DNA of 64,000 nt from an uncultured Clostridium sp. (GTDB taxonomy: Bacteria > Bacillota_I > Bacilli_A > RF39 > UBA660): NCBI GenBank assembly GCA_947427095.1, contig CANEGO010000002.1, positions 99,810 to 163,809 on the forward strand, in the 5' to 3' direction. Of this stretch, positions 2,405 through 42,250 are shown in pieces. Within the stretch, counting starts at the first letter, position 1; each line of letters begins with the position of its first letter. The position numbers and the translations under genes are program-made. The notes beneath the pieces were generated by a model. The model saw nothing but the letters and a program-made list of their open reading frames with translations. It had not been told where the DNA came from and made no database searches.

Positions 2405-2431
2405 TCAAAAAAGACCGCTTCAAGTCTTTTA
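2405..2431 (-). terminator. Rho-independent terminator after the N/Q-rich gene, just upstream of the rpiB RBS
   Basis: Hairpin AAAAGAC-N8-GTCTTTT followed by a U-run on the minus strand. Confidence 0.45.
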
Positions 2432-3610
2432 TTTATTTATTTTTATTATCAATTGTTGCATATGTTCAAAATCAAATTCTTCTAACTCTATATCTACTCC
2501 TTGATTTTTCAAATCTTGAATTAACTCTTTTAATTTTAAAACAGAATCGTTAACAGATAACATAGGTTTTGAATCATCATCCGATTCATCTTCATTAATA
2601 TCCATAATATCTAATGTATCTGGTTCATCATACATACCTTCTATTCCTAAATCTGATAAAGTAGATACGTTTTGTGAACTATCGTTCAACTTAGAATCTT
2701 GAATAATAGTATATTCGTTATTAATACCCAAATCCGTTGATTGAGTATTAGTGGTATTATCCAATTCTTTAGTGATTTCATTATCTTCAGTTGAAACTTG
2801 ATTAATATTTAAATTTTCCTGACCTAAAATATTATTTACAATATTTTTATTGTTTTGATTAAATTCATTTTCGTTCACTGAAAAATTAGAATTCGTATTT
2901 AAAACAAAATTTTCATTACTATTAAAAGCGGGTTGATCATTATTAAATTGTGGTACTTGAGATAATTGATTGGGAATTTGTCCAGAAAAAGTACTTGAAG
3001 GTGTACTACTTAACATATTATTATTATTCAAATTAAAGTTTCCATTAGAAGTATCAAAATTTGAAAAAGAATTCATTGACATATAGTTTTGAGGCTGGTT
3101 AATCACTTCCGGATATGAATTATTAATAGACGGATTTGGCATAATAGAAGTTTGAACATTATTAAAATTATTTAAATTACCATTTTCATAATTATCCAAT
3201 GGATCGTTAGCCCTTGCAACTTCAGGCATTACATTCATAGGATCCAAAACTTCCATGGTTGGAGCACTTGCTATGGTTGCATCACTTAAATTTTTAATTT
3301 CACCTAATTCTGGTGGTATATCACCTAAATTTTGACCTTCTAAATTTAAATCTTGATTAACAAAAGAAGGTGCAGAATTTACGTTCATTTGAGGCATTGT
3401 AGTGTTAAAACTTTTATCAAAAACATTATTAGTATCGTATGATCCAGTTTGATAGTTATTTGTATTTTGAACAGGTTGATTGATTTCATTTTGAAAAGTT
3501 TGATATTCACCATTAGCATTTCCTAAAGTATTAGTAAAATCATTTTGAAAAAGCGGTTTTACTTCATCATTGTTAAAATTCCTATTATTATTCATATCAT
3601 TATTAAACAT
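2429..3610 (-). CDS. Asn/Gln-rich low-complexity protein (393 aa) with a short structured acidic/helical C-terminus
   Basis: Uninterrupted 393-codon ORF in AT-rich DNA with an AAAGGGGAA RBS. About 30% N+Q, no TM helix. It sits where noc/parA/parB are found in most Firmicutes. Confidence 0.5.
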   Translation of the reverse strand: MFNNDMNNNRNFNNDEVKPLFQNDFTNTLGNANGEYQTFQNEINQPVQNTNNYQTGSYDTNNVFDKSFNTTMPQMNVNSAPSFVNQDLNLEGQNLGDIPPELGEIKNLSDATIASAPTMEVLDPMNVMPEVARANDPLDNYENGNLNNFNNVQTSIMPNPSINNSYPEVINQPQNYMSMNSFSNFDTSNGNFNLNNNNMLSSTPSSTFSGQIPNQLSQVPQFNNDQPAFNSNENFVLNTNSNFSVNENEFNQNNKNIVNNILGQENLNINQVSTEDNEITKELDNTTNTQSTDLGINNEYTIIQDSKLNDSSQNVSTLSDLGIEGMYDEPDTLDIMDINEDESDDDSKPMLSVNDSVLKLKELIQDLKNQGVDIELEEFDFEHMQQLIIKINK

Positions 3611-4363: not shown

Positions 4364-6179
4364 TGTAAAACCTCTTTAAGTATACCATTAGTATTGCTAT
4401 ATCAGATGGATTAACACCGCTAATACGAGTTGCTTGATCAATGGTTCTAGGTCTTACTTTTTCTAATTTTTGTCTTGCTTCAGTAGCTAGATTATCTATC
4501 TTTTTATAATCAATATCATCTGGTATCTGCTTTTTACCAAGCCTAATCGTTTTCTCAGCTTCTTTTTTAGCTTTTGCAATATAACCTTCATATTTATGAT
4601 TAATTTCTACTTGTTCTAATACTTCTTTATCATAAGTCTTGCTTAATTTATCTACATAATCCGTTATTTTCACTTCTGGTCTTTTCAAATATTCTGATAA
4701 ATTACATTTATACTGTGGAAAAGTAATAGTTTTAATATCTTCTTCTAATTCTTCTATTTGTTTTAATTTATTTAATAATTTATTATGTCTTTCCTCGCTA
4801 AGTAATCCCACGCTGTATGCTTTTTCACTTAGTCTTAAATCAGCGTTATCGCTTCTAAGTAGCAATCTAAACTCTGCACGAGAAGTAAGTAATCTATATG
4901 GTTCAATGGTTCCTTTAGTTACTAAATCATCTATTAAAACACCTATATAAGCATCACTTCTTGATAATATTAATGGTTCTTTATTATCTAGTTTTAAACT
5001 AGCGTTAATACCTGCAATAATACCTTGTCCTGCGGCTTCTTCATAACCTGATGTTCCATTTATTTGACCTGCGGTAAATAAGTTTTCTATTACCTTAGTT
5101 TCAAGTGATGGCTTAAGTTGTAATGGATCTATTGCATCGTATTCTATTGCGTATGCATATTTTAATATTTTAGCGTGTTCTAATCCTTTTAATGAGTGAA
5201 CCATATCTTCTTGAACATCGTGAGGCATAGATGTTGAAAATCCTTGTAAATATATATCATCATAGTACATACTTTCTGGTTCCAAAAATAATTGATGTCT
5301 TTCTTTATCTTTAAAGCGAACTACTTTATCTTCTATTGAAGGGCAATATCTAGGACCAGTACCTAGTTTTTCATAGAACCCACCATACATAGCGGATTTA
5401 TCTAGGTTATCCATTATTATCTTATGTGTCTTTTCATTTGTATAAGTTAAATAACAAGGTTCTTGGTTTTTGTAATCATAGTACGCTATATTATCAAAGC
5501 TGAAGGTTAACTCTTCATCATCCCCATCTTCACGAGATAATTCACTAAAATCAATAGAAGATCTTTCTATTCTAGGAGGTGTTCCTGTTTTTAATCTAAG
5601 TATCTTAAATCCTAACTTTTCTAAGTTATCACTTAAGAAATTAGATCTTTTTTCTCCATGTGGTCCTTCTGGTGTTCTATTATCACCTACTAATATATCC
5701 GCTTTTAAATAAGTACCCGTTGTTAATATACAAGCATCACAATTAATAGTTTCACCATCTTCAGTAGTAATTCCAGTTATTTTATCATTATTAACTAATA
5801 AATCTCCTACTACCCCTTCTTTAATTGTTAAATTATCAGTACTTTCTAATGTCTTTAACATTTCTTTTTTATATGTTACTTTATCTGCTTGGCTACGTAA
5901 AGATCTAACAGCAGGACCTTTAGACGAATTAAGCATCTTTATTTGAAGTAACGTCTTATCAGCATTACGTCCCATTTCTCCACCTAATGCATCTATTTCT
6001 CTTACAACGATACCTTTAGCACTACCACCAATAGATGGGTTACATGGCATATCCGCAATGTTTTCTTTATTAATTGTTATAAGTAAAGTCTTTTTTCCCA
6101 TTCTAGCTGTCGCAAGTGCGGCCTCACAACCGGCATGACCTGCTCCTACTACAATAATGTCATATTTCATACTACTCAC
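4356..6179 (-). CDS. mnmG: tRNA uridine-5-carboxymethylaminomethyl modification enzyme MnmG (GidA)
   Basis: N-terminal FAD motif KYDIIVVGAGHAGCEAA and 607 aa of conserved GidA sequence. Confidence 0.95.
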   Translation of the reverse strand: MSSMKYDIIVVGAGHAGCEAALATARMGKKTLLITINKENIADMPCNPSIGGSAKGIVVREIDALGGEMGRNADKTLLQIKMLNSSKGPAVRSLRSQADKVTYKKEMLKTLESTDNLTIKEGVVGDLLVNNDKITGITTEDGETINCDACILTTGTYLKADILVGDNRTPEGPHGEKRSNFLSDNLEKLGFKILRLKTGTPPRIERSSIDFSELSREDGDDEELTFSFDNIAYYDYKNQEPCYLTYTNEKTHKIIMDNLDKSAMYGGFYEKLGTGPRYCPSIEDKVVRFKDKERHQLFLEPESMYYDDIYLQGFSTSMPHDVQEDMVHSLKGLEHAKILKYAYAIEYDAIDPLQLKPSLETKVIENLFTAGQINGTSGYEEAAGQGIIAGINASLKLDNKEPLILSRSDAYIGVLIDDLVTKGTIEPYRLLTSRAEFRLLLRSDNADLRLSEKAYSVGLLSEERHNKLLNKLKQIEELEEDIKTITFPQYKCNLSEYLKRPEVKITDYVDKLSKTYDKEVLEQVEINHKYEGYIAKAKKEAEKTIRLGKKQIPDDIDYKKIDNLATEARQKLEKVRPRTIDQATRISGVNPSDIAILMVYLKRFYNE

Positions 6180-6789
6180 CTTCTTTTAAATTAACTTCGT
6201 AAATAAACTGTTCTTCTTTTTCTGTTTTAGCTTTATCGAAATAAATTGGCTCTTCGTAAATTTTTTTAAAACCTAAACGTTCATAATATTTATAGTTACA
6301 ATCATCATCAGTTACTATTTTTAGTTTTTTCATGTTATCTTTTCTTGCCAAATTAAAAATCATTTTTAATAGTTCGGATCCATAACCATTTCCTTGATAT
6401 TTTTTATCAACTATGAAAATAATAATATCTCCATCATATTTATTATCAAATTTAGATTCTATTTTATCATACAATTCATTATATCTTGCGAAAGCTTTTT
6501 TATCTTTTATAAAAGGGCCTTTTACTATTAAAGATTTTAAAAATTTATAGAATTTTTTTTTAACCAAAAATTTTTTGGAGTCTCTCTTTTCATATGCACA
6601 AAAACCAATTACTTTATTATCTACTTTTTTTATTATCATCCGCTCTGATTTTGATAATATATCAAATAATAAATAATAAGCACACCAAGGGCCAGTTGTT
6701 TTTGATTCTTCCTCCCCCAATTCCCACTGGTTATGTAAAATATTCATCATTTGCCTTAATTCTTTAATTTTCAAATAAATCACCAACAT
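6172..6789 (-). CDS. GNAT-family N-acetyltransferase (205 aa)
   Basis: Acetyl-CoA-binding motif A (VDKKYQGNGYGSELLKMIF) and YYERLGFKK. The stop overlaps the mnmG start by 8 nt, so it is co-transcribed with mnmG. Confidence 0.7.
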   Translation of the reverse strand: MLVIYLKIKELRQMMNILHNQWELGEEESKTTGPWCAYYLLFDILSKSERMIIKKVDNKVIGFCAYEKRDSKKFLVKKKFYKFLKSLIVKGPFIKDKKAFARYNELYDKIESKFDNKYDGDIIIFIVDKKYQGNGYGSELLKMIFNLARKDNMKKLKIVTDDDCNYKYYERLGFKKIYEEPIYFDKAKTEKEEQFIYEVNLKEGE

Positions 6790-6824
6790 TTCTTTTGGTA
6801 TTATACAATATAATTAAAAAAAAG

Positions 6825-7763
6825 TTAATTCCTAACTCTTTCCATGTTATTTAATTTATAACTTATTAAATAAATCCCATAATCATTTACGTATTGCATT
6901 ATAAAATTATCATTATTTTTTGATATAATTAATCCAATTGTTTTATTATGATATTTCATCTTTAAAGTTTTATCTACTATTTTTCTATATAGCTGTATTT
7001 GGCTAATATCTTTATAATTAGTGTTATTAAGTTTTAATTCTACTGGTATATAACAATTTAGATTGGTATTGAATAACATCATATCAACATAAAAGGGCTT
7101 ATCTAGATACGTTAATTTATACTCACTTCCTGCATATAAAAATCCTGTTCCTAGCTGCAAAAAGAAATCTCTTAACTCTTCTAATATATATTTTTTAAGC
7201 ATCTTTTCACTTAAATTTTTATTGTTTAGAGCTTTTATAATAATTGGATCTAATAACATATCTTTTAAACTATAATCTAATTCTTTATTTGTATCTATTA
7301 GTTTTATATTATTTTTATCTGCATAATATAATCTATCAAAGGCTTTTTCTTTTATTAATTTAATTAGTTCTCTCTTAGACAAATTATTTAAAATACATTG
7401 ATTTATATAATAATTTCTTTCATTTTCATTTTTTATTGGAAGCAGATAACGCCAATGGGTCCAAGTTATGTTAAATTGGTGGCCCGCTGGGCCACCTTTT
7501 TGAGTAACTATTAAAAATTGCCTCATTCTCTTTAAATTAGATATATCATAACCCTTACCATATTGTTCTACTAACTTTTTAGACCAATTCTTAATAAGTT
7601 CATTGCCATATTTAGCCCTTGTTTCTCCACCTTGTGCTTCTACTAATAACTTACCAATTTCATAATAAGCTTCTAATGTATCTTTATTAGATTGTAATCT
7701 TCTTACTCCTTCATTTATTTCTTTATTTTCTATTACGTTTTTTATTTTCTTATAATAATCCAT
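6825..7763 (-). CDS. DUF1016/YhcG-like protein with a C-terminal PD-(D/E)XK nuclease motif
   Basis: N-terminal YhcG-like region and a C-terminal ..FYVDMMLF..IPVELKL.. (D...ExK) motif. It has its own TATAAT -10 and GGAG RBS downstream of the mnmE terminator. Confidence 0.6.
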   Translation of the reverse strand: MDYYKKIKNVIENKEINEGVRRLQSNKDTLEAYYEIGKLLVEAQGGETRAKYGNELIKNWSKKLVEQYGKGYDISNLKRMRQFLIVTQKGGPAGHQFNITWTHWRYLLPIKNENERNYYINQCILNNLSKRELIKLIKEKAFDRLYYADKNNIKLIDTNKELDYSLKDMLLDPIIIKALNNKNLSEKMLKKYILEELRDFFLQLGTGFLYAGSEYKLTYLDKPFYVDMMLFNTNLNCYIPVELKLNNTNYKDISQIQLYRKIVDKTLKMKYHNKTIGLIISKNNDNFIMQYVNDYGIYLISYKLNNMERVRN

Positions 7764-7831
7764 AATATGGCTCCTTTCGAGGCTTTTATTATATGAATTA
7801 TTTTTAAAAAATGAATATTGTAATAAGAAAC

Positions 7832-7864
7832 AAAAAGGTACACCCGTGGCGCACCTTTTTAAAA
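7832..7864 (-). terminator. Bidirectional rho-independent terminator separating mnmE from the DUF1016-GNAT-mnmG-rsmG unit
   Basis: AAAAAGGT-ACACCCGTGGCGC-ACCTTTTT hairpin with a GC-rich core, flanked by A/T runs. Confidence 0.6.
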
Positions 7865-7868
7865 CATA

Positions 7869-9212
7869 TTACTTTCCTAAACAAAATCTACTAAATAAAT
7901 TATCAACAAGTTCTTCTGTATAATTAGCTCCTATTATATCTCCTAATTTCTCCCAAACTAGTTTTAAATCTATTTCTATCATGTCTATTTCTCTTTCTTC
8001 GTTAACTCCTTTTTCTACTTCTTCTAACGATTCTATCGCAGACTTAAGTAATGCTATTTGTCTTGCGTTAGTAAAAAACATCAAATTCTTACTTAAGAAT
8101 GTACCCACGTTAAATAATTCTTTTATTTTATTCTTTACATCTTCGATACCGGTATTTTCTTTAGCACTTATTTTAATAACATCTTTATCATATGTGTTAT
8201 TACTATCCAAATCAGTTTTATTCATTATAACAATTCTTTTTTTATCTTTAGTTTTATCAAGTAAGAACTTATCTTCATCTGATAATTCTTCAGAAGCATC
8301 AAGCACTAAAAGTACTAATTCTGATTCATCTATTAAACTAATACTTTTTTCTATACCTATTTTTTCTACAATATCATTTGAATCTCTAACGCCTGCGGTA
8401 TCAATTAAATTAAGCTTAACACCACTTATTATAATACTTCCTTCAACAATATCCCTAGTAGTTCCTTTAACATCTGTTACAATAGCTTTTTCTTCTTCAA
8501 GTAGTGCATTTAATAAACTTGATTTACCTACGTTTGGCTTACCTAATATAACAGTTTTAATACCATCTTTTAATATTTTACCATCTTCTGATAATTTAAG
8601 TATTTCAAGTAGTTTAGATTTCATTTCTACTACTTCTTCTTTAATTCTATTTATGGTAACAACTTCAATATCTTCATATTCTGGATAATCTATATTTACT
8701 TCTATGTTTGAAATTAGAGCAACTATCTTATCTCTTAAATCAGTAATAAGTTTAGATACTTTACCTGATAACTGATTGATAGCCATTTTTCTAGTAAGTT
8801 CTGTTTCTGAATTAATTAAATCCATTACTCCTTCAGATTCCGCTAAATCTATTCTACCGTTTAAAAATGCTCTTTTAGTAAATTCTCCTGGCTGAGCAAG
8901 TCTACATCCAGAAAGTAATAATACTTCCATTATTTTATTAACTACAGCAATAGAACCATGAGTATTTATTTCTATTACATCTTCCCTTGTATATGTTTTA
9001 GGTGCTTTCATTATAGAAAGTAAAACTTCATCTATTATTTCATCTTTATATATAATGTGTCCATAATTTATCGTATGAGTTTTAATTTTAGTTAAATCCT
9101 TTCCACTAAATAAAGGATTAACTATACTTATAGCATCTTCACCAGATACCCTAATAATAGATATAGCGCCTTCTCCTAAAGCAGTTGAGATTGCAACAAT
9201 CGTATCATTCAT
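7869..9212 (-). CDS. mnmE: tRNA modification GTPase MnmE (TrmE/ThdF)
   Basis: G1-G4 GTPase motifs (GKPNVGKSSLLNAL, DTAG) and a C-terminal ..CLGK. Full length, 447 aa. Confidence 0.95.
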   Translation of the reverse strand: MNDTIVAISTALGEGAISIIRVSGEDAISIVNPLFSGKDLTKIKTHTINYGHIIYKDEIIDEVLLSIMKAPKTYTREDVIEINTHGSIAVVNKIMEVLLLSGCRLAQPGEFTKRAFLNGRIDLAESEGVMDLINSETELTRKMAINQLSGKVSKLITDLRDKIVALISNIEVNIDYPEYEDIEVVTINRIKEEVVEMKSKLLEILKLSEDGKILKDGIKTVILGKPNVGKSSLLNALLEEEKAIVTDVKGTTRDIVEGSIIISGVKLNLIDTAGVRDSNDIVEKIGIEKSISLIDESELVLLVLDASEELSDEDKFLLDKTKDKKRIVIMNKTDLDSNNTYDKDVIKISAKENTGIEDVKNKIKELFNVGTFLSKNLMFFTNARQIALLKSAIESLEEVEKGVNEEREIDMIEIDLKLVWEKLGDIIGANYTEELVDNLFSRFCLGK

Positions 9213-9281: not shown

Positions 9282-10610
9282 CTAAATTAAAGTTACTGAA
9301 CTCTTTTTATTATCTATTTCATTAACTATTGAATTAATAGAGTTATCAAACGAATCTTTAGAAACTTCTTTTGCCATAATATCAGTTTCTTCTACTTCAT
9401 TAACACTTTTCTTCGTTATAACCTTAATATAATTATCATAATATTCCCTTATTATTGTCATATTATCTAAATCTAATGCTGTAGTATCAGAGTTTTTATT
9501 AGCAGATTGAAAAAAAGTTTTTTTATAAAACTTTGGAATTCCTATCTCCTCTATTTTTTTTGAATTAAAATAATATTTAATACCGGAATCGCAATGAGTA
9601 AAGTTTATATTTGATATATATTTGATATGTTCATAAATCATTGGATTTATGAGTTCTTCATTTTCGATAATATCAAAATAGCAATCTCTTAATAAATCTA
9701 TTATTTTAATTCTTAAACTATCAAAGTCAGGATTTTCTTCTTTTCGTTCCCATCTATAATCGTTAAATAAAGCAAATAATTCATCTACCTTTTCTTTTTC
9801 TATTCCTCTATTTACTAAGGCATTCACTAATATATTTATGTCTCCTTTTGCTCTTGTTTCAAACAATATATCTGAACCTACAAATTCACATAAGATTCTA
9901 CAAAAAGTAACTTCAGCATCATACGAAATCAACTCATCATTATATTCATAAGCCAATAAGGCAGTTAGCCCTTCAAAAAACCATGCATTATCCCCTTTAT
10001 AATGTTCTTCCGCATGAAATATTTCATGTGAAATGGAATTATTTCTACAATTATCATTAGCAAAGGTTATTGAATTATCGTAATTATTATATAAACCAGC
10101 TATTCCTTCATCAAGCAAAGCCTCGTCACTTGAATTAATTTTAAAACTTGATAATTTATTATATACATACTCATAATCTAAATATTTATTATCTATAAAA
10201 TACTGTATATAACCAGTTAATTTTTCTTTTTCTTCTTTAGTTAAATACTCATTTTGTAATAATGCGTAGTATAAAGCATATGCTTTTTTTTCATCCATAT
10301 CAGAATTTCTTATTTTATCTACTATGTCTTTAAATGCATCATCACAAATAAATTCATTTGTTTTCACAGCTTGATAATTAGCGATAAAATCGGAACTCAT
10401 AGTAGACCCGGTAAAAGGGTTAGAATTATTTAACTCATATTCTACTCCATTTTTTATAGTACTTAAACAAATAGTTCCTTGAAGTGATAATAAAAGAGCT
10501 AAAAAGGCTGAAGTTATTTTTATTTGCCTATTTTTTAATTGTTCTAATTTACTTATATTATCATTCTTTCTTTTATAAAAATCTTTATCTTTATACAAAT
10601 GTAACACCAC
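9282..10610 (-). CDS. Membrane-anchored putative zinc metallopeptidase (HExxH zincin), 442 aa, family unknown
   Basis: N-terminal signal-anchor TM (IKITSAFLALLLSLQGTICL). HEIFHAEEH is followed by EGLTALLAYE about 20 aa downstream, a gluzincin-like arrangement of a third ligand. Confidence 0.5.
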   Translation of the reverse strand: MVLHLYKDKDFYKRKNDNISKLEQLKNRQIKITSAFLALLLSLQGTICLSTIKNGVEYELNNSNPFTGSTMSSDFIANYQAVKTNEFICDDAFKDIVDKIRNSDMDEKKAYALYYALLQNEYLTKEEKEKLTGYIQYFIDNKYLDYEYVYNKLSSFKINSSDEALLDEGIAGLYNNYDNSITFANDNCRNNSISHEIFHAEEHYKGDNAWFFEGLTALLAYEYNDELISYDAEVTFCRILCEFVGSDILFETRAKGDINILVNALVNRGIEKEKVDELFALFNDYRWERKEENPDFDSLRIKIIDLLRDCYFDIIENEELINPMIYEHIKYISNINFTHCDSGIKYYFNSKKIEEIGIPKFYKKTFFQSANKNSDTTALDLDNMTIIREYYDNYIKVITKKSVNEVEETDIMAKEVSKDSFDNSINSIVNEIDNKKSSVTLI

Positions 10611-10699
10611 CTTAAATTAATTATACAATAAAACTATTATTCAAAAAATAAAATAAATGAATATTCAGTAAAATATCGTAAATAAAAAGAGAAATATCT

Positions 10700-11332
10700 C
10701 TATTCCTCCGTTGGTTTAATAACAACAAATCTATTTGGCTCTTCACCTTCACTTATAGTAGTAACACCTTTAAAATTAGCAAGCGCATTATGAACCAATC
10801 TTCTCTCATAAGAGTTCATACTATCCATTTTAACTTCTACTTTAGTTTTTCTTACGTCTTTTGCTAATCTAATAGCTAGTCTTTCTATATTTTTTTGTTG
10901 TTTTTCTCTATAATCGTTTGAATCTAAAATAACGTTTATCCTTACGCCTAGCTTACTTTGAATAGATTGTCTAAGTAAGTCTTGTAATGACATCATCGTT
11001 CTACCATTTTTACCAATTAAAATGGCCCCATTATCAGAAATCATATTTACTTTTATGTAATTTTCTCTTTTTTGAGTTTCAAATTCAACGTTTATCCCCA
11101 TTAAGTCAGTTACTTCTTTTAAATAAGATTTAATGTATTCAATAACATCTTCTTTTAATACAACGTTAACACAAAACTTTTTAGATTTAAATAAACCTCC
11201 TGACTGTTCTTCTGTTACGTTATAATAAACTTCATTGGTTGATGCATTAAGTTCTGCTAAAGCTTTATTTAATACGTCTTCACTATTTTTTCCTTCATAT
11301 TTATGATTTTTTAATTCTAGCATTATTTCCAC
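10700..11332 (-). CDS. khpB: Jag/KhpB RNA-binding protein (Jag_N, KH and R3H domains)
   Basis: The C-terminal R3H motif (..MNSYERRLVHNALANFKGVTTISEGE..) and its position downstream of yidC match Jag. Confidence 0.85.
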   Translation of the reverse strand: MEIMLELKNHKYEGKNSEDVLNKALAELNASTNEVYYNVTEEQSGGLFKSKKFCVNVVLKEDVIEYIKSYLKEVTDLMGINVEFETQKRENYIKVNMISDNGAILIGKNGRTMMSLQDLLRQSIQSKLGVRINVILDSNDYREKQQKNIERLAIRLAKDVRKTKVEVKMDSMNSYERRLVHNALANFKGVTTISEGEEPNRFVVIKPTEE

Positions 11333-12284
11333 CTCTTTGTACCAATAAGTTTTGAATAACAGTAAATAAACTTGAAGTTATCCAATATAATCCAATTGCA
11401 GTTGATAATTGAAATGAACTTATTGTTATTACAACAACCATTACATTCATCATCATTTTTGTTGAAGCAGCCGCTGGATTTGAGTTATCTGCAACATCAT
11501 TTTTGGTAAATTTAAATGAGAAGAAAGTAACTATAAATACTAATATAGGTAAAATTATGTACCAAAAGTTTCCTTGTGATAAAGCGAACCATGGCGTTGT
11601 ACCTAACTGTAATCCTAAAAAATTACCTTCGAAAATAGCTGGGGTTCTATTAATTGCTTCCAAAAATGCAATAAATAATGGTAATTGTATAAATGCTATG
11701 ATACAACCCGAGAACAATGAAATATTATATTTTTTATATATTGCCATCATTTCTTGACTCTTTTGAATCATTGCTTGTTGATCATCTGCTTTATTTGCAT
11801 ATTTCTTTTCAAGTTTTTGTAATTCTGGTTGAGCCTTCTTTAAATTTTCAGACTGCATAGCGCTTTTTTTAGTCACTGGGTATAAAATTAGTCTTATTAC
11901 AAGTCCTGCAAGTATTACTGCAAGACCAAAATTTTTAACAAGATATCCTAATTTTAATATTATCCAAGCAAGTGGTTTTATAAAAATATTATCCCATAAA
12001 CCTTCACTGGATTTTAACGATGGAGAAAAATTGTTACAATTAACTAATTTATCAGTATCAACACCGTTTTTATTATATATATTATTTAAATCTTTATCGG
12101 TTGGTTTACATAATATATTTTTAGTAAGTGCTTGACCAGTAGCATTTTTCCCTTCATCATATTTAACAACAACTTTTGTCTTTTTACCATTATCATTCGT
12201 TTTTTCAACAACTAATTGTTTTGTACAACCAGTTAATAAAAAAACCAGTAAAAAAACTATAATTATTTTTTTTAGTTTTTCCAT
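11301..12284 (-). CDS. yidC: YidC/SpoIIIJ membrane protein insertase (lipoprotein)
   Basis: Lipobox ..LLTGC and the conserved YidC 60-kDa core (..LQLGTTPWFALSQGNFWYIILPILV..). Confidence 0.9.
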   Translation of the reverse strand: MEKLKKIIIVFLLVFLLTGCTKQLVVEKTNDNGKKTKVVVKYDEGKNATGQALTKNILCKPTDKDLNNIYNKNGVDTDKLVNCNNFSPSLKSSEGLWDNIFIKPLAWIILKLGYLVKNFGLAVILAGLVIRLILYPVTKKSAMQSENLKKAQPELQKLEKKYANKADDQQAMIQKSQEMMAIYKKYNISLFSGCIIAFIQLPLFIAFLEAINRTPAIFEGNFLGLQLGTTPWFALSQGNFWYIILPILVFIVTFFSFKFTKNDVADNSNPAAASTKMMMNVMVVVITISSFQLSTAIGLYWITSSLFTVIQNLLVQRGGNNARIKKS

Positions 12285-12298
12285 TTGGTTTATATCTC

Positions 12299-12622
12299 CT
12301 ATTCATTTGATTTTTTAAGAAGGTTTACTAAATCTTCTTTTAGATTTAAATACTCAGTCCCAACGGCACTTTTCTTTAATATAATTATATAATCTTTACT
12401 ATCAAAATGCAACTTAGATTTGTCAATTATATCCTTTACCTGACGTTTTAATTTGTTTCTAACAACAGCATTTCCTGTTTTTTTTGATATGCATATTCCA
12501 AAACGATATTCTCCCTTTGTATCATAAGTATACAAAAAAGCATACCTAGATTTAGTTTGCCTATTTAGTTTAAAGGCTCTATCAAAATCTTTTTTTTCCT
12601 TAACTATGTTCTTTTTTTTCAT
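12299..12622 (-). CDS. rnpA: RNase P protein component RnpA (start taken at MKKKNIVKEK; the track ORF extends to 12655)
   Basis: Basic protein of about 107 aa with the RNR-like motif NKLKRQVKDI, directly downstream of rpmH. Confidence 0.85.
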   Translation of the reverse strand: MKKKNIVKEKKDFDRAFKLNRQTKSRYAFLYTYDTKGEYRFGICISKKTGNAVVRNKLKRQVKDIIDKSKLHFDSKDYIIILKKSAVGTEYLNLKEDLVNLLKKSNE

Positions 12623-12673
12623 AAATAAGCACCTCTTATTATAACAAAAAACCACTTACCTAAATAAGTGGGA

Positions 12674-12802
12674 TTATGCTGATAACTTTTTACGTCCTTT
12701 AGCTCTTCTTTGATTTAAAATACCAGTACCAGCTAATTTTCTAGCGAAAAAGCCATGATTTTTCTTTCTTTTATGGTTATTTGGTTGAAAAGGTCTTTTC
12801 AT
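12674..12802 (-). CDS. rpmH: 50S ribosomal protein L34 (42 aa; absent from the ORF track, which omits ORFs below 60 aa)
   Basis: Manual translation gives [42 protein letters not shown], the canonical L34 sequence. Confidence 0.9.
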
Positions 12803-12898
12803 ATCTACACCTCCAAGTCTTTATTTTTTCGGTTTTTTTTAACATGACTATTATAAATTTAATTCAGCAAGTTGTCAACCTTTTTGATATACAACTCA

Positions 12899-16352: not shown

Positions 16353-17375
16353 ATGCCTAAGATTTTAGTGGCTGATTTATTTGGTACAATAATTCCAAAT
16401 AATATATTGAATGCTAATTATTTATATGTAAACATAGATAAATATAAAGATATTAATGAAATTTGTTATGATAAAAATCAGCATGAGTATTTGATTGAAA
16501 AATTATGTTTACAATGTGCAAATGATTTAAAAAAATTTTTAAACGATGGTAATGAACTTATAATAGCGTCGGATTTATCGGCTCACGAATTAAATTTAAC
16601 TTTTATTTATGAGGAGATTATAGAAAAAATATTAAAGTATTGTAATAAAAATTTTACTTTATATATGGTAACAAAGGGCGGCGCAGCTAGTTTCAACTTA
16701 GAGGTGTTAAAATCTCATATTACTGAAGAATATAGTGAACATGGTATTGATTATATTGTGTTTGAAGGTTATAAAATAGGTCTTATTGATAGAAAGGAAG
16801 ACATATTTAGAGTAGTTGAAAGTAAATTTAACTTACAAGAATGTGAATTATATTCAATTGGAAATGATTACAAAGATATTCCTATGCTTGTTAGATGTAT
16901 TGAGTTAGGTGGAAAAAGTTCTTTATTAAACTATAATTTATATTCTAACGAACTTCTTTCAAGAACTACGTTAGATAAAGCTATATGTGAAAGGATTCAA
17001 AGAGAAAATCATATATTATTAGAAAAAGAGTTGTTAAAAGACCATCCTGGTTTTAGTTTGTTAGATAAGTATAAATATTTAATGGAAAGAAGGCTAACTT
17101 CAGAATATAATAGATGGTATGAAAAAAGAAAAGAGGAGCTTTATCAAGAAGTAAGAAAAGGTAATATTACGTTAGAACAATTAATTAAAGAAAAATTAAT
17201 TTTTGGACTTTGTCAAACTGCTATTAATCATTGTTTAGAAAGGAAAACATTCATCGAAAATAATTTAGATAAAATAGATATGTATTCTACTTTTAGAGAT
17301 TATTATAATAAAGTACTTAATTGTGATTCAAAAGAAGAAATAAAAAAATCACCCGTAAAATTATTAAAACCTTAA
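16353..17375 (+). CDS. HAD-superfamily (Cof-like IIB) protein with a degenerate motif I and a roughly 130-aa charged helical C-terminal extension
   Basis: Motif IV SIGNDYKDIPML is present and motif I reads ILVADLFGTII (DxD changed to DxF). It has its own TATAAT promoter and an AAAGGAGG RBS. Confidence 0.55.
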   Translation: MPKILVADLFGTIIPNNILNANYLYVNIDKYKDINEICYDKNQHEYLIEKLCLQCANDLKKFLNDGNELIIASDLSAHELNLTFIYEEIIEKILKYCNKNFTLYMVTKGGAASFNLEVLKSHITEEYSEHGIDYIVFEGYKIGLIDRKEDIFRVVESKFNLQECELYSIGNDYKDIPMLVRCIELGGKSSLLNYNLYSNELLSRTTLDKAICERIQRENHILLEKELLKDHPGFSLLDKYKYLMERRLTSEYNRWYEKRKEELYQEVRKGNITLEQLIKEKLIFGLCQTAINHCLERKTFIENNLDKIDMYSTFRDYYNKVLNCDSKEEIKKSPVKLLKP

Positions 17376-17474: not shown

Positions 17475-17936
17475 ATGAAAAATTATGAAATTAATAGGCA
17501 AACGTTAGCAATAATATCTTGTGGAAAGGAAAAATCAAAAATAATAGAAGAAAATAATGAGTTTTTTATTGATCAATCTTCTACTAAAATAATTGATGAT
17601 AGTTGTAGGTTTTTTGGTAGTTCATACGATGGGAGACTTAATGGGACTAAAAGTATTTTAGGTGTTTCACACAAAGCACCCATTATTATTGAAGAAAGTT
17701 CTGGTATAATATTTTTTCCAACCACATCTCCTAGATTAGATTGTTGTTCATGGATTTCTTTAAACAATATAGAAGAATACTATAAATTATATGGTGATAC
17801 AATAATAAAATTTAGTTGTGGAAAAAAAATAAAGTTAGAATTATCGTATGGAATAATTGATAATCAAATATTAAGAGCAACGAGATTAGAGGCATTAATA
17901 GCAAAAAGAACTTATAATTTAAAAAAAATAGCTTAA
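17475..17936 (+). CDS. comK: ComK-family competence transcription factor homologue (153 aa)
   Basis: DDSCRFFGSSYDGR and HKAPIIIEESSGIIFFPTTS align with B. subtilis ComK DRSCRFFGSSYAGR and HKPPIMVDPSNQIFLFPTLS. An AAAGGAGGG RBS is present. Confidence 0.7.
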   Translation: MKNYEINRQTLAIISCGKEKSKIIEENNEFFIDQSSTKIIDDSCRFFGSSYDGRLNGTKSILGVSHKAPIIIEESSGIIFFPTTSPRLDCCSWISLNNIEEYYKLYGDTIIKFSCGKKIKLELSYGIIDNQILRATRLEALIAKRTYNLKKIA

Positions 17937-35757: not shown

Positions 35758-36576
35758 ATGAGTGTTAAAGATATTTTAAATAAAAATGGATTTATTTTTA
35801 AGAAAAAGTTTGGTCAAAACTTTTTGCTTGATAATAATATTTTAAATAATATTGCTGATTTAGGTAATATAACAAAAGATACTCTTGTTATAGAGGTTGG
35901 CGTAGGAGCAGCTGCTTTAACTAAAAAATTAAGCCTTAAAGCAAAGCTAGTATTGGGTTATGAGATAGATATAAATTTGAAAAAACCGCTTGATGAAATA
36001 CTTACGGGCTATGAAAATGTTAATATAATTTATGATGACTTTTTGAATCGTGACGTAAAAAAAGATTTAAGTAAGTATGAATACAAAAACATTATAGTAG
36101 TCGCAAATCTTCCGTATTATATAACGACTCCAATAATAACTAAATTTATTGAAGAAAAAATAAACGTAGAAAAGATAGTAGTTATGGTGCAAAACGAGGT
36201 GGCTGACCGATTTTGTGCAAAAACTGGAACTAAATCATATAACTCTTTAACTATTTTTTTGAATTATTATTTTGATATTAAAAAGGCTTTTACCGTTTCA
36301 AGAAATGTATTTTATCCAAAACCAAACGTTGATTCTGCTGTTGTAGTTTTTACAAAAAAAGAGAAAAAATTAAAGTTAAATGATGAAGCCTATTTCTTTA
36401 GACTTGTAAAAGCAGCATTTACTCAAAAAAGAAAAACTTTGAAAAATAACTTATCAGACTACGACTTAGATAAAATTAATGAGGTATTAAAAATATCAGG
36501 TAAAGATATAACTAAAAGAGCAGAATGTATTACAATAGAAGAATTTGCTAAAATTTCAAACGAATTAACCAGATGA
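35758..36576 (+). CDS. rsmA: 16S rRNA (adenine1518/1519-N6)-dimethyltransferase RsmA/KsgA
   Basis: The ATG is preceded by AAGAGGAG; the track ORF starts upstream at a TTG. Motifs FGQNFL and ..VVANLPYYITTPII... Confidence 0.9.
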   Translation: MSVKDILNKNGFIFKKKFGQNFLLDNNILNNIADLGNITKDTLVIEVGVGAAALTKKLSLKAKLVLGYEIDINLKKPLDEILTGYENVNIIYDDFLNRDVKKDLSKYEYKNIIVVANLPYYITTPIITKFIEEKINVEKIVVMVQNEVADRFCAKTGTKSYNSLTIFLNYYFDIKKAFTVSRNVFYPKPNVDSAVVVFTKKEKKLKLNDEAYFFRLVKAAFTQKRKTLKNNLSDYDLDKINEVLKISGKDITKRAECITIEEFAKISNELTR

Positions 36577-36617
36577 TAGAATGTCTGGTTTTTTCTTTGC
36601 ATATATTTTATTGGGTG

Positions 36618-37370
36618 ATGATATTGTTTAAAGTAGGAGATTTAGTCACTAGGATATCACATGATAATGATGTTGTATTTAAGATAGAAAAAATTGATTC
36701 AGGAATTGCTTATTTGAAGGGTGTAAATGTAAGACTGTGCGCCGATAGCAGTGTAAGTGACCTAATTTTGGTTGATTCAAAGAATAATGAAGAAGACCGA
36801 ATATTTTACGAAAAATTAGAGACGATAAGGAATTTTGAAAGAAGTGATTATTTTTATATTCCTGGTAAAATTCTACATGTGGATGGGGATAGAGAATATT
36901 TAAATAGGTGTTTAGATTTTTATAAAAAAGCTAATGTTTTGGCTTTTGGAGTTTACTCACCGGAAAGTGAAATGGCACAAAATATCGAAAAGTATTTAGA
37001 TGATATTAACCCTGATATTGTTGTTATAACTGGTCATGATTCGGAAATAAAAAAGAACTCAAAGTATTTTTCAGAAGCTGTAAAGGCTTGCCGTAAGTAC
37101 CAAAGGGATTATGATAAATTAATAATAATTGCTGGTGCTTGTCAATCGGATTATGAACACCTTATAAAAGCGGGAGCCAATTTCGCGTCAAGCCCAAAGA
37201 GGATAAACATTCATGCGCTTGATCCTGCAATTATTGCTTTATCCCTAAGTCTGTCTGATAAAAATAAAAATGTTGATTTACTAGCGCTTTTAGAAAAAAC
37301 GAGCAACGGTAAGGACGGTATTGGTGGTGTTAATACAAGGGGTGTTATGACTACCGGGTATCCTAGGTAA
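36618..37370 (+). CDS. yabG: Sporulation-specific protease YabG
   Basis: PGKILHVDGD, IVVITGHD and IIAGACQSDYEHLIKAGANFASSPKRINIHALDP align closely with B. subtilis YabG. The position between ksgA and veg is conserved. The start was chosen at MILFKVGDLV; the track ORF begins at 36573. Confidence 0.75.
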   Translation: MILFKVGDLVTRISHDNDVVFKIEKIDSGIAYLKGVNVRLCADSSVSDLILVDSKNNEEDRIFYEKLETIRNFERSDYFYIPGKILHVDGDREYLNRCLDFYKKANVLAFGVYSPESEMAQNIEKYLDDINPDIVVITGHDSEIKKNSKYFSEAVKACRKYQRDYDKLIIIAGACQSDYEHLIKAGANFASSPKRINIHALDPAIIALSLSLSDKNKNVDLLALLEKTSNGKDGIGGVNTRGVMTTGYPR

Positions 37371-37586: not shown

Positions 37587-37675
37587 TATATGAACTTTTT
37601 TATTTGTGTTTATTGATTTTTATCCCCATTTGTGGTTAAATTAAAATGTATAAACTAAAATGGGAGGACTATACT

Positions 37676-40600
37676 ATGAACATGGCAAAGTCGAATATTA
37701 AAAGCAGATTAAGTGATTGGTTTCTTATTCAGAGAATTAGAATAACTAATTTTATGAAGGAACATAAGTATGTTTCGGCGTTTATTGGTGTTTTTTTAAT
37801 GTCTTCCTTAATTGCTTTCATAGTTTACGCGGTTGATGCAAACAAGTATGATGGTCAGGTTTCAGTTACGGCTAAAGTTGAGCAAAAAAACGTATCTTCA
37901 AGCGAGGAAATTACACATATTAAAAGCTTTAGCAACATCATATATGATATATCATATGGATTATCAATATCAGACTTACCTGCCAACGAAACGGTTGTAA
38001 GGGAAAAAGTAATAATTGAAGCAGAATTTAACGAAGGTATTGATGCTGAATGGATATTCCAGGACGAGGATGCAACTTATGAATTGTCAGAAGATAAAAG
38101 AAAGTTAACGGTAACTATTTATCAAACTAAGGTTGGGGAACTTAACAGCAAGCAATTGTATTTAAAAGCAAAAAATATACAAAATGGAACAGTTATAAAT
38201 ACGAATATTAGAATAAAGGAATCTACCGCCGCAGATTTTACTGATTTAGGTCAAAAAAGTGTAGTAATAGAAAGTGAAAAAGTTGATTTAACTACTAAAA
38301 TAATATCTGGCACAGCTTATAAATCTTCTGACTATCAAGAAGGACGATTAGCTCCTTTTGGTATATTAGTTGGATTTGATAAAAGTAATCTTAAAACAGA
38401 GAATAAAGATAGTTTAGAGGGGCTTTATTTTGATCCTAATTTGAGTTTAATATTAGAAGCAACTCAGACTGTAAATGGAGTTAATTCTCAAATAGAATTA
38501 AAAAATGATAGTAATAAATTTTTTGGATTATATGATAAAGGATCTAATTTATTGCCATTGATGCCACATCATATAAATAATTATCAATATTATTCAGTAT
38601 ATAATTCCGGTAAGGTTACAAACTTAATCAAGTCAAAAAGTGGGGTTTCCGGTGTTGTTACTGAAAATAAAAATCCAGATTTATATTTAATAGGTGATAA
38701 AACCATGAATTTAGAGCTTGGAGAAAAATACGAAGAATATGGTGTGTCAACAACAAATGGTGGTTCAGCTATTTGCAAAACAAGCAGTTCTTCCTGCACC
38801 CGTGTTATAAAAGATAAAGATGGAAATGAAATCGCTGATAATGACGTTACCAAATCGGTTGGTAATTATATTGTTAGCTATGAATATAATACGGCAAGTG
38901 GTGTTACTAAGGTTAACAGAAATATCAAAGTTGCTGAAAAAACAACGGCTACTTTAAATGATGATGTGTATGAACTAAACGGTAATAAAATCATTACTTT
39001 AGTAAAAGGTACAGCTTATTCTGAAAGTGGAATAATAAAAAATGGTGCTAAATATTATAATTATGAAAGTATCATAACAAAAGATGGAGATGTTATTGAA
39101 AAAATAGACGCAACCATAGTTGGTACCTATGTAATAACTTATAAAATTACTGATGCTACTAGTCAGACGCCAGAAACTGGTGAAGAGACCCTGGCAGAGG
39201 AATCTACCATTAAAGAAGTTTCGTTAACAAGGACGGTTAAAGTAGTTGAAGGCTTGGAGTATTTGAAAGCACAAACGATTACTTCCAGCACTATTTATGC
39301 TCCGTCAGATGGTTCATTTACTAACCCTTTAATAAATCTTGATGGCAAGGATATAGAATGTACAAGCGATAGTGGATGTGAGGTTAAATATTATGATCCA
39401 ATTAGTAAAAAAGAAACAACTATTGATAAACAAAAAGCTGGAACATATAATGCTATATATAAAATAACCGATAAAAATGGATTTGAACTACAAACGGGAA
39501 ATGTTATTAATATTCAAACTAAATATGATTTTAATATAGAGGGAATAAAATCTGATGGAACTATTAATTTATATGGAGACGATTTTGTTGCATTAGGTTC
39601 TTATTTTGTAAATGCGGCATCTCCTAGAGCTCTTGAAGCAAGTGGTGATATTGCAGTTAATCTAAGAATTGGTGATGTAGTATCAGAAAATGTTATTAAT
39701 AAAGTTTATTCGGCAGGAACGAAAACTAATCATTTAACATTTAATACCGATACCTCTGGAATGTTAACAGAGTTGCCAAATGACACTTATTTAGCTTATG
39801 GTGAAGAAGTTATTTTAAGATCGGTATTTAATTATTCTAGTGATGGCGATGATAATATTGGAACTTTAACAACTAGGATTCCGATTGGTACGGCTGTTTC
39901 ATCAGCAAATAATCCGACCGCTCCGTTTACTATGGTTGAGTATAATAATAGTGTGGAGAATGGTGAACCCTATTACGTAAATGAGGAATTAAAAGATAAA
40001 GTAAAAGTTAGCTATTATGCATGTGAAATGGAAGAATCTAAGACAACCTGTATTAGTGAAACCGGAGCAACTTATGAAACTTTTGATACATTAAATGACG
40101 CTTTGAAGAAAAATGATAAATTAAGATTAGCTTATTTAACATACGTGGTTAATGACGTAAGACCTGGCTCTGAAATTGATTTTAGGATTAGATTAGTTGC
40201 TAACGTTGGAAATCATGATGGAGTACTTACAATGACATCAACATCTACATTTGATGAAAAGCAAGAAAATGGAACTAGTCAAAGTAAAAATATATCTGAT
40301 AATAGTACTATAAACGTTACCGCGTTTAAGGCAAGGACTAAAGTGTTTATTGGTAATAGTGAACAAGACGTCATAATAAATGCCGCTAATGTAAATAGCT
40401 CAACGTGGACTATTTATCCGACAATAAGTTTACCAGCAGAGTTAGTAAATACTAATATAGCGGCTATAGATGAACTTTCTAATATTACAATCGTTGTTAC
40501 TTTGCCTGATGGAATTAATTATTTATATAATGAAAATTATGATATTCCTTCAGTAAGTAATAATGGCAAAACCCTAACTTATGTTTTAAAGGGGAAACAC

Positions 40601-42250
40601 GTTAATGAGTGGATTGATCCGATAACGTTTGAGGCTAGTTATGATATAGATATTCCTTCTGGAACAAGAAAGGAAGTTAACGTTTTAATACAAGCAACGT
40701 CAACCAGTGGAATATCTGATGCATCTAGTAAAAACTTAAGAACAACAACGAGAGCAGTGACATATCAAAATAACGAAGTAATAACATATGCACAGTATAC
40801 TCCATATACAGCAATATCTAAAGAGACAAGTTTTAATGTAAGCACTAAATTATACAATAATGATAGTAAAGAAGTAACGCATTCAAATTTAGATATTGTA
40901 ACGCTACTTCCGTATAATGATGTAAGTAACGAAAAAAATAAATATACAGGCACATATACTATATCTAATTTACCTAAGGGAGCTTTATGTACAACTAGTA
41001 TTCCATCCGTAATAAGTGACTCTAAAAAACTTTTATCTGGTGATGAAATAACATGGGAAGATTGTTCTAAATATCAATCTGAGAACTATGTTGGCATTAC
41101 GGCCATTAGGGTTAATGGTATAAGTCTTGCTGCTAGAAAAACTTATGAACAAAGTATAACAATTAATCCAATAGGTAATAAAACAGATGATTCATATCAA
41201 ATTAATTCGTATTTAATCATGGATTCTGATGGTAAAAGGATTGTAAAAAATATTAAAGCTTTAAATATTGATGTTATTAGTAAAAGAATAACTGGTACGG
41301 TTTGGGAAGACTTTGACGCCAACGGTATTATGGATGCACAAGAAAAAAAGGTGTCAGGGGTTACTTTAAAATTATACAATGCGGAAACTGACGAACTTGT
41401 AAAAACTACTACTTCTGATGAAAAGGGTAAATATAGTTTATCTGATTTGATTCCGGGCACCTATTATGTAGTGGCAGAGTATAATACGGCAAAATATGGT
41501 TTATCACCATATCAAGTAACACTAGATAAATCTGTTAGTTCCTCGTTTAATGCAACTAAGGTTAACGAAGATAATATTGACTCTAAAAATAGTAATACAA
41601 AAGATGATATAGTATCTTCCGAATCGACAAAAGAAGATGTAGAATGCACTGGTGATGAGTGTACAGATCTTGACCCCTCTGATAAACTGGAAGAAACTCA
41701 GCCTGTTATTAGGACCGAAAATATAGAAATAAATAGTAATACTAGAATGGTTAGTAATGTTAATCTTGGTCTTGCACTTAGAAAGACATATTCTGTTAAA
41801 TTGACAAAGTATGTAACAAAGGCAATTACGACTAATAATCTTGGTGTATCAACAATAAAAGATTATGGTAATGTTTCTTTGGCAAAATTGGACGTAAAGG
41901 ATATAAATAATTTAGGTATTAAGGTTGTTTATACTTTAGAATTAGAAAATACTGGTTATTATCCTGGTTATATTTATTCTGTGAAGGATTATATTCCAGA
42001 TGGGATGAAGTTTAATGAAAATTATGAAGAAAATAAAGGTTGGGTAATGACTGAATATGGTTATTTGGAAAATAACACTTTATTTGATCAGTTGGTTGCT
42101 GGGGGAGAAAAGAAATATCTTACAGTCGCCTTTGATATCGTAAGAAAAGAAGCTGGCTCTTTTGTTAACTATGCGGCAGTGGATGATGAAGATTTACAAA
42201 TTTTAGTTGTTGCTGGAAATGAAGGAGAAGAAGGTGATAGTAATGAATAA
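37676..42250 (+). CDS. Giant N-terminally membrane-anchored surface protein (about 1525 aa) with a C-terminal CnaB/SdrD-B-type domain and a DUF11 domain
   Basis: Start set at the ATG 8 nt after GGGAGG; the track starts at 37646. A TM helix (VSAFIGVFLMSSLIAFIVYAV) follows a short cytoplasmic tail. ITGTVWEDFDANGIMDAQEKKVSGVTLKLYNAETDELVKTTTSDEKGKYSLSDLIPGTYYV is a classic CnaB/SdrD B repeat. The terminal VVYTLELENTGYYPGYIYSVKDYIPDGMKF is DUF11-like. There is no C-terminal sorting signal. Confidence 0.7.
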   Translation: MNMAKSNIKSRLSDWFLIQRIRITNFMKEHKYVSAFIGVFLMSSLIAFIVYAVDANKYDGQVSVTAKVEQKNVSSSEEITHIKSFSNIIYDISYGLSISDLPANETVVREKVIIEAEFNEGIDAEWIFQDEDATYELSEDKRKLTVTIYQTKVGELNSKQLYLKAKNIQNGTVINTNIRIKESTAADFTDLGQKSVVIESEKVDLTTKIISGTAYKSSDYQEGRLAPFGILVGFDKSNLKTENKDSLEGLYFDPNLSLILEATQTVNGVNSQIELKNDSNKFFGLYDKGSNLLPLMPHHINNYQYYSVYNSGKVTNLIKSKSGVSGVVTENKNPDLYLIGDKTMNLELGEKYEEYGVSTTNGGSAICKTSSSSCTRVIKDKDGNEIADNDVTKSVGNYIVSYEYNTASGVTKVNRNIKVAEKTTATLNDDVYELNGNKIITLVKGTAYSESGIIKNGAKYYNYESIITKDGDVIEKIDATIVGTYVITYKITDATSQTPETGEETLAEESTIKEVSLTRTVKVVEGLEYLKAQTITSSTIYAPSDGSFTNPLINLDGKDIECTSDSGCEVKYYDPISKKETTIDKQKAGTYNAIYKITDKNGFELQTGNVINIQTKYDFNIEGIKSDGTINLYGDDFVALGSYFVNAASPRALEASGDIAVNLRIGDVVSENVINKVYSAGTKTNHLTFNTDTSGMLTELPNDTYLAYGEEVILRSVFNYSSDGDDNIGTLTTRIPIGTAVSSANNPTAPFTMVEYNNSVENGEPYYVNEELKDKVKVSYYACEMEESKTTCISETGATYETFDTLNDALKKNDKLRLAYLTYVVNDVRPGSEIDFRIRLVANVGNHDGVLTMTSTSTFDEKQENGTSQSKNISDNSTINVTAFKARTKVFIGNSEQDVIINAANVNSSTWTIYPTISLPAELVNTNIAAIDELSNITIVVTLPDGINYLYNENYDIPSVSNNGKTLTYVLKGKHVNEWIDPITFEASYDIDIPSGTRKEVNVLIQATSTSGISDASSKNLRTTTRAVTYQNNEVITYAQYTPYTAISKETSFNVSTKLYNNDSKEVTHSNLDIVTLLPYNDVSNEKNKYTGTYTISNLPKGALCTTSIPSVISDSKKLLSGDEITWEDCSKYQSENYVGITAIRVNGISLAARKTYEQSITINPIGNKTDDSYQINSYLIMDSDGKRIVKNIKALNIDVISKRITGTVWEDFDANGIMDAQEKKVSGVTLKLYNAETDELVKTTTSDEKGKYSLSDLIPGTYYVVAEYNTAKYGLSPYQVTLDKSVSSSFNATKVNEDNIDSKNSNTKDDIVSSESTKEDVECTGDECTDLDPSDKLEETQPVIRTENIEINSNTRMVSNVNLGLALRKTYSVKLTKYVTKAITTNNLGVSTIKDYGNVSLAKLDVKDINNLGIKVVYTLELENTGYYPGYIYSVKDYIPDGMKFNENYEENKGWVMTEYGYLENNTLFDQLVAGGEKKYLTVAFDIVRKEAGSFVNYAAVDDEDLQILVVAGNEGEEGDSNE

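Follow-up and report, generated by a model that had tools for sequence, protein, structure and literature searches.

To our knowledge, most Bacillota carry nothing between jag and mnmE. In the stretch of DNA analysed here, 64,000 nt long and referred to below as the window, a gene with an HExxH motif lies between the two. We call this gene, and its product, X. Is X a genuine gene, and does it have the features of a zinc-dependent peptidase of a recognised family? If it is transcribed with yidC, jag and mnmE, does that make it part of the housekeeping functions of this operon? Or is it a gene with a separate history that happens to be fixed at this site in some bacteria? Here we investigate X through its sequence, its predicted fold, its relatives and the loci in which these are found.

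Gene model and neighbourhood

The initial annotation described a protein of 442 aa, the product of the mechanically called ORF from a GTG (9282-10610, minus strand). The ORF is present and X is a genuine gene; the length, however, is to be revised. The GTG falls inside a Shine-Dalgarno-like AAGGTGG, and a TTG codon at 10598 comes 8 nt after this site. In addition, a nearly identical database protein (P0001, 99%), which represents 7 member sequences on 7 contigs, has 438 aa and the same motifs. For these reasons X is likely to start at the TTG and to have a product of 438 aa, and residues are numbered from this start throughout. The features of the gene and its surroundings are collected in Table 1.

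Table 1. Positions of X, its features and its neighbours in the window, with one OLE-linked locus for comparison
Feature	Position	Strand	Remark
X coding sequence	9282..10598	-	438 aa from TTG start, stop codon included
Shine-Dalgarno-like AAGGTGG	10607..10613	-	8 nt upstream of the TTG of X; encloses the GTG
rpmH	12674-12802	-	upstream of X
rnpA	12299-12655	-	upstream of X
yidC	11301-12284	-	upstream of X
jag/khpB	10700..11332	-	upstream neighbour of X; Jag_N, KH and R3H domains
mnmE	7869..9212	-	downstream neighbour of X; 69-nt spacer between
Perfect sigma-70 consensus, TTGACA-17-TATAAT	12850..12878	-	upstream of rpmH; likely operon promoter
Terminator-like hairpin and T-run	7831..7861	-	after mnmE; first such site downstream of X
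Lys/Arg-rich N-terminal tail, residues 1-26	10521..10598	-	predicted cytoplasmic
Single hydrophobic signal-anchor helix, residues 27-48	10455..10520	-	predicted; Kyte-Doolittle 1.74
Helical N-terminal subdomain, residues 88-160	10119..10337	-	most conserved part; N116, N137, DN(K/P)YLD
Catalytic centre (predicted), residues 161-222	9933..10118	-	short beta strands, HExxH helix, Glu helix
HEIFH (H191, E192, H195)	10014..10028	-	two predicted zinc ligands and catalytic base
E209 (GAA) in WFFEGLT	9972..9974	-	invariant; predicted third zinc ligand
E218-Y219 pair, end of Glu helix	9942..9947	-	nearly invariant
Helical C-terminal subdomain of core, residues 223-345	9564..9932	-	conserved R234/C237 'RILCE'
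Variable C-terminal beta-sheet and helix, residues 346-438	9285..9563	-	
Mosaic patch, residues about 140-234	9896..10180	-	~57-78% identity to L018
Locus L032: zincin gene	4830-5993		OLE-linked clade
Locus L032: OLE RNA	6044-6652		
Locus L032: OapA-like ORF	6701-7300		

The order on the minus strand is rpmH, rnpA, yidC, jag, X, mnmE, a YhcG/DUF1016 nuclease gene, a GNAT gene, mnmG and rsmG, while dnaA and dnaN are on the opposite strand, divergent from the rpmH-mnmE unit. X had been placed between jag and mnmE in the rpmH-rnpA-yidC-jag-mnmE unit, and this position is correct, the insertion being specific to one clade. In the window sequence no terminator-like site separates yidC, jag, X and mnmE from one another, so that X has none on either side. 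X would probably be transcribed together with yidC, jag and mnmE, by read-through from the rpmH promoter. Between rpmH and rnpA there is a terminator-like hairpin with a T-run (12652-12671, minus strand), which overlaps the mechanical start of rnpA and could be an attenuator or partial terminator inside the operon.

Recent horizontal transfer of X into the operon was considered and rejected, its GC content of 25% being that of the flanks. A tblastn search of phage and plasmid collections with X gave no match above threshold, which argues against X as a gene of a mobile element. An HMM search of the whole 64,000-nt window found no second family member among its ORFs.

Other genes of the window may be noted. 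The YhcG/DUF1016 gene, encoding a PD-(D/E)xK nuclease, lies between mnmE and mnmG (6825-7763, minus strand); it is present in four related loci (L003, L005, L009, L010) and absent in two (L001, L007). The GNAT acetyltransferase gene between it and mnmG (6172-6789, minus strand) is present in L010 and absent from L018, where there is a gap of ~580 bp; it is a strain-level indel within the mnmE-mnmG unit. Downstream of rsmG is a 393-aa ORF (2429-3610, minus strand) at a conserved position, with no Pfam or NCBIfam match. It is another fast-evolving gene, 48% identical in L001/L008 where its neighbours are 77-87% identical. On the plus strand a 340-aa ORF (16353-17375), between dnaN and a comK homologue (17475-17936), likewise has no Pfam or NCBIfam match. 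Two very large plus-strand ORFs (37646-42250, 1534 aa, and 42207-44372, 721 aa) have SdrD_B, SpaA and Ig-like surface domains and probably encode surface proteins of the pilus or adhesin type.

The HExxH motif and its conservation

The HEIFHAEEH reported for X is present, and so is a gluzincin-like Glu downstream of it. The spacing had been given as about 20 residues; it is in fact 13, from the second His of HEIFH to E209. Family members have between 11 and 25 residues in this interval, most often 16. In an alignment of 149 homologous sequences, which are 17-91% identical to the X of the window, H191, H195 and E209 are invariant, and E192, G210, E218, Y219, N116 and N137 are conserved at 90% or more. 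The invariance of the two His and E209, with E192 so strongly conserved, indicates that the HExxH of X is more than a chance occurrence. Conservation of these residues in orthologues was one of the two points on which the initial reading had been made to depend. It is borne out for the His/Glu/His and for the Glu downstream, in orthologues as well as in distant members of the family. HExxH is found in 148 of the 162 retrieved proteins, and most of the others are fragments.

A metzincin (HExxHxxGxxH) was rejected as the class of X. This reading fails because H199, the last His of HEIFHAEEH, is not conserved in the homologues; there is also no Gly at the required position.

Five full-length relatives (P0026, P0028, P0044, P0051 and P0054) have altered motifs, among them HEFIVH, with one extra residue, HGLLH and HDGCH. 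Since these motifs are degenerate, such members are probably inactive, and catalysis is probably not universal in the family.

Membrane topology and predicted fold

One hydrophobic segment is present in X, after a Lys/Arg-rich tail. This agrees with the single N-terminal signal anchor and extracytoplasmic domain first proposed, the latter being predicted here as well. The tail is 43% identical, and within the clade its YKDKD..Y..K motif is kept. Of the 144 full-length family members that have HExxH, 107 have a hydrophobic 19-mer on the N-terminal side of it, and the mean net charge is +3.4 before this 19-mer and +0.1 after it. Under the positive-inside rule, such a charge pattern is the signature of a signal anchor with the N-terminus in and the C-terminus out. 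X is therefore predicted to be a type II membrane protein, with a cytoplasmic N-terminus and a large C-terminal domain outside. That X might be a lipoprotein was rejected: C44 is preceded by G-T-I, which is not a lipobox ([LVI][ASTVI][GAS]C), and C44 is not conserved in homologues.

Conservation is uneven along the protein. Mean pairwise identity is 64% over residues 88-160, 49% over the catalytic segment and 23% in the C-terminal region. The AlphaFold2 model of full-length X has a pLDDT of 75, with values of about 90 across residues 100-330, and a model of the core (residues 66-352, from the 149-sequence alignment) reaches a pLDDT of 90.4 and a pTM of 0.87. In order along the chain there are six helices, short strands, the HExxH helix (182-197), a short loop, the E209 helix (205-220) and more helices. 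The zincin fold suggested at the outset is not contradicted by this arrangement, and the core model shows strand-strand-helix(HExxH)-loop-helix(E209). In the models, X would have two characters of a gluzincin, HExxH on the active-site helix and a Glu on the helix that follows. Fold matches of the model are gluzincins, protein and peptide peptidases, with modest scores and with unrelated helical proteins among them. With the full-length model, a Foldseek search of the PDB found no significant match.

Placement of the family

Only 21 relatives of X were found by a word-indexed search of 5.8 billion proteins, none of them named and none with a Pfam domain. When 1.84 billion cluster representatives were searched exhaustively with an HMM, 340 were matched at E ≤ 1e-3 and 180 at E ≤ 1e-10. 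Searches with X, 22 close and 16 distant homologues gave nothing above threshold in Pfam, NCBIfam, PHROGs or PADLOC. Nor did a PDB sequence search with X, the 149-sequence profile or the motif consensus. The initial annotation could not place X in a known family, and these results bear it out.

Below threshold, the recognisable Pfam matches of the family consensus are all zincins: BSP, SprT-like, Peptidase_M1, Peptidase_MA_2 and PhageMetallopep. The consensus scores 13.7 bits against Peptidase_M1 (PF01433), where the cut-off is 27.7, and 13.2 bits against Peptidase_MA_2 (PF13485), where it is 32.4, so it lies below both; X itself has no match to PF01433. A distant relative of 856 aa (P0166) scores 22.1 bits where the M78 cut-off is 22. 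The M1 exopeptidase motif GxMEN has no match in X and a single chance match (P0130) in the 168 retrieved proteins. From the sequence comparisons and the models we conclude that X appears to be a gluzincin-type enzyme outside every described family.

The family, with about 340 clusters at 50% identity, is apparently confined to low-GC Bacillota, and many of its members come from gut samples. Naming this unannotated gluzincin-type family would improve the annotation of uncultured gut Bacilli.

A clade associated with OLE RNA

In JGI metagenomes there is a distant subgroup of the family, 25-30% identical to X, with the motif HExIH...F-x-EGMTELL-x-NEYF. Its loci were traced with a 41-sequence EGMTELL alignment. 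At 12 loci a full-length OLE RNA (RF01071, up to 419 bits) is found 16-137 nt downstream of the zincin gene on the same strand. Ten of these belong to the 14 metagenome loci whose sequence extends far enough downstream, and the other two are L013 and L014 (the full set is L013, L014, L019-L022, L024, L027-L029, L031 and L032). The OLE RNA is followed by a gene for a 200-aa OapA-like protein with four hydrophobic helices, at the usual position of oapA relative to OLE (PMC12265935). A neighbour-joining tree separates the OLE clade from the jag/mnmE clade, and no OLE RNA was found in the window itself. A literature search found no report of a zincin between jag and mnmE or beside OLE. A functional link between the zincin family and OLE is offered as a low-probability lead. 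OLE is a large non-coding RNA, and a family of which one clade is its immediate upstream neighbour is a possible new lead for it.

Immediately upstream of the zincin in the OLE-linked clade is a gene with a Glucosaminidase domain. Could X be a cell-wall hydrolase that cleaves the peptide stems or cross-bridges of peptidoglycan, and not proteins? The predicted active site would lie on the outer side, and wall-remodelling genes are close by, at 813-1736 and 118-768 on the minus strand, encoding a SpoIID-domain protein and an M23 peptidase. However, the glucosaminidase neighbour is absent from the clade of the window, no LysM, SH3, SPOR or PG_binding domain is recognisable in X, no known peptidoglycan peptidase family is matched, and the fold matches are peptidases of proteins and peptides. 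We regard a wall hydrolase as unlikely.

Synteny and rapid evolution in the jag-mnmE clade

The order jag-X-mnmE is found in at least 9 related loci, from at least 6 GTDB species, all named 'uncultured Bacilli bacterium' and from rabbit, mouse or human gut, and in several metagenome assemblies. Outside one clade of low-GC gut Bacilli MAGs this placement is not conserved. Within these same genomes X is 37-54% identical to the copy in the window. For the surrounding genes the corresponding values are 60-78% (rnpA), 84-94% (yidC), 76-85% (jag), 77-92% (mnmE), 87-96% (mnmG) and 69-88% (rsmG).

Differences in X are also seen between strains. Over 13 kb a contig from another sample (L018) shares ~98% identity with the window, except for a patch of ~285 bp in X. 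The patch includes 15 bp of indels and takes in the beta strands and both the HExxH and the Glu helix. Recombination seems to have replaced the active-site region here. Such swapping between strains, together with its fast evolution, suggests that X is a surface enzyme on which diversifying pressure acts.

Several relatives have disrupted copies. In one species (L001, L002, L008; 5732-6010 in L001) the loss of 1 nt from a T-run where the anchor begins shifts the frame and splits the gene into ORFs of 31 and 344 aa. In L038 (192-1505) the codon for the invariant Glu is itself a TAA (WFI*GLT), the remaining 229 codons being in frame; the truncated product, P0165, is recorded from 3 contigs. P0021 is an in-frame deletion allele of P0006 from which residues about 92-222, including HExxH, are gone. 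Only a 90-residue remnant of X is left in L012, and L011 has a 42%-identical member located outside the operon. Together, the low identity, the active-site patch, the disrupted relatives and the member outside the operon argue that X is dispensable and fast-diversifying despite its operon site. The initial annotation had proposed co-expression with core housekeeping genes. Co-transcription is indeed probable, given the rpmH promoter and the uninterrupted unit, but a housekeeping role is not implied by it, because X has diverged much faster than the genes around it and several relatives have broken copies.

These observations bear on whether X might be a protease of envelope biogenesis or quality control that works with YidC and/or Jag (KhpB), trimming or degrading membrane or secreted proteins as they emerge. 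Such a role would explain why X is fixed inside the yidC-jag operon. The yidC-jag-X-mnmE order is conserved without terminators, as is the short cytoplasmic tail, and the second clade adjoins the membrane-associated OLE RNA/oapA-like system, the loss of which is reported to lead to a secretion defect (PMC11332333). On the other hand, yidC and jag change far more slowly than X, several relatives with an intact operon have a disrupted X, and close members occur outside the operon. Most Bacillota, moreover, have no gene at this position. We do not see X as a core partner for YidC, Jag or MnmE, and we consider a protease of this kind improbable. Its stable placement in a housekeeping operon in several species, together with the conserved cytoplasmic tail, could nevertheless mean a more integrated role than the word 'accessory' conveys.

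A broader idea takes both clades together. One clade has X fixed immediately downstream of yidC and jag (khpB), the latter a gene for an RNA-binding protein, and the other adjoins OLE. The family might be functionally tied to membrane-associated RNA-protein machines, with X an extracytoplasmic protease acting with, or controlled by, membrane RNPs. This is doubtful at best. If it were true, a role in secretion or in envelope stress responses would be possible, and the OLE system would have in the zincin a protein partner that has gone unrecognised.

A sporulation-specific protease, for example one in forespore-mother cell signalling or in the maturation of coat or cortex, was also considered. 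In Bacillus the yidC homologue of the rpmH operon is spoIIIJ. The window encodes the sporulation protease YabG (Peptidase_U57, E 1e-82; 36573-37370, plus strand) in addition to SpoIID, so that the host is probably an endospore former or the descendant of one, and one distant family member lies near spoIVA. But no sporulation-type promoter or partner gene was identified for X, which is apparently driven by the housekeeping rpmH promoter and is frequently disrupted in relatives, and we find a sporulation role very hard to credit. Equally remote is the suggestion that the X of the window is itself a non-catalytic or decaying remnant, a pseudoenzyme or scaffold: relatives with a frameshift, stop codon or deletion, the degenerate motifs of some paralogues and an unusually short HExxH-E209 loop in this allele (13 residues, against the mode of 16) all point that way, but the ORF is intact over 438 codons with all invariant residues kept, and its 99%-identical counterpart stands for 7 sequences.

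Proposed function

The reading we prefer, and hold to be probable, is that X is a membrane-anchored, outward-facing zinc metallopeptidase of the gluzincin type, serving as an accessory and fast-diversifying surface protease. H191, H195 and E209 would hold one Zn2+, and E192 would activate the zinc-bound water. A substrate peptide may align with the edge strand of the small beta sheet in front of the HExxH helix, in a cleft that would be shaped by the helical subdomain (88-160) and by the variable C-terminal region. The substrates of X would be extracellular or envelope proteins or peptides.

Comparison with known metallopeptidases

How does X, read in this way, compare with the zincins that have been described? 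One likeness is to the M1 aminopeptidases (PepN, LTA4 hydrolase and ERAP1; PF01433, clan MA(E)). These share with X the HExxH, the Glu on the next helix (in X a predicted ligand) and the W/F-x-x-E-G around it, and the sub-threshold Pfam alignment spans both motifs. However, X is a much smaller protein with a predicted N-terminal anchor helix, it lacks GxMEN, and the N-terminal beta domain and C-terminal ARM-like domain of M1 are absent from it. Peptidase_MA_2 (PF13485), the M61 glycyl aminopeptidases and the small 'HExxH...EG' gluzincins have no counterpart of its helical subdomain with DN(K/P)YLD, N116 and N137. There is no sequence match to the bacterial collagenases of M9 or to hyicolysin and lugdulysin of M30; these are secreted whereas X is predicted to be membrane-anchored, and their activator, PKD and collagen-binding domains are not found in X. 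Like X, M78 (ImmA/IrrE, PF06114), SprT-like and BSP (PF04450) proteins are small HExxH zincins, but their matches to the X family are weak and cover the HExxH helix only. They are cytoplasmic or soluble, and their partners, repressors and DNA, are absent here.
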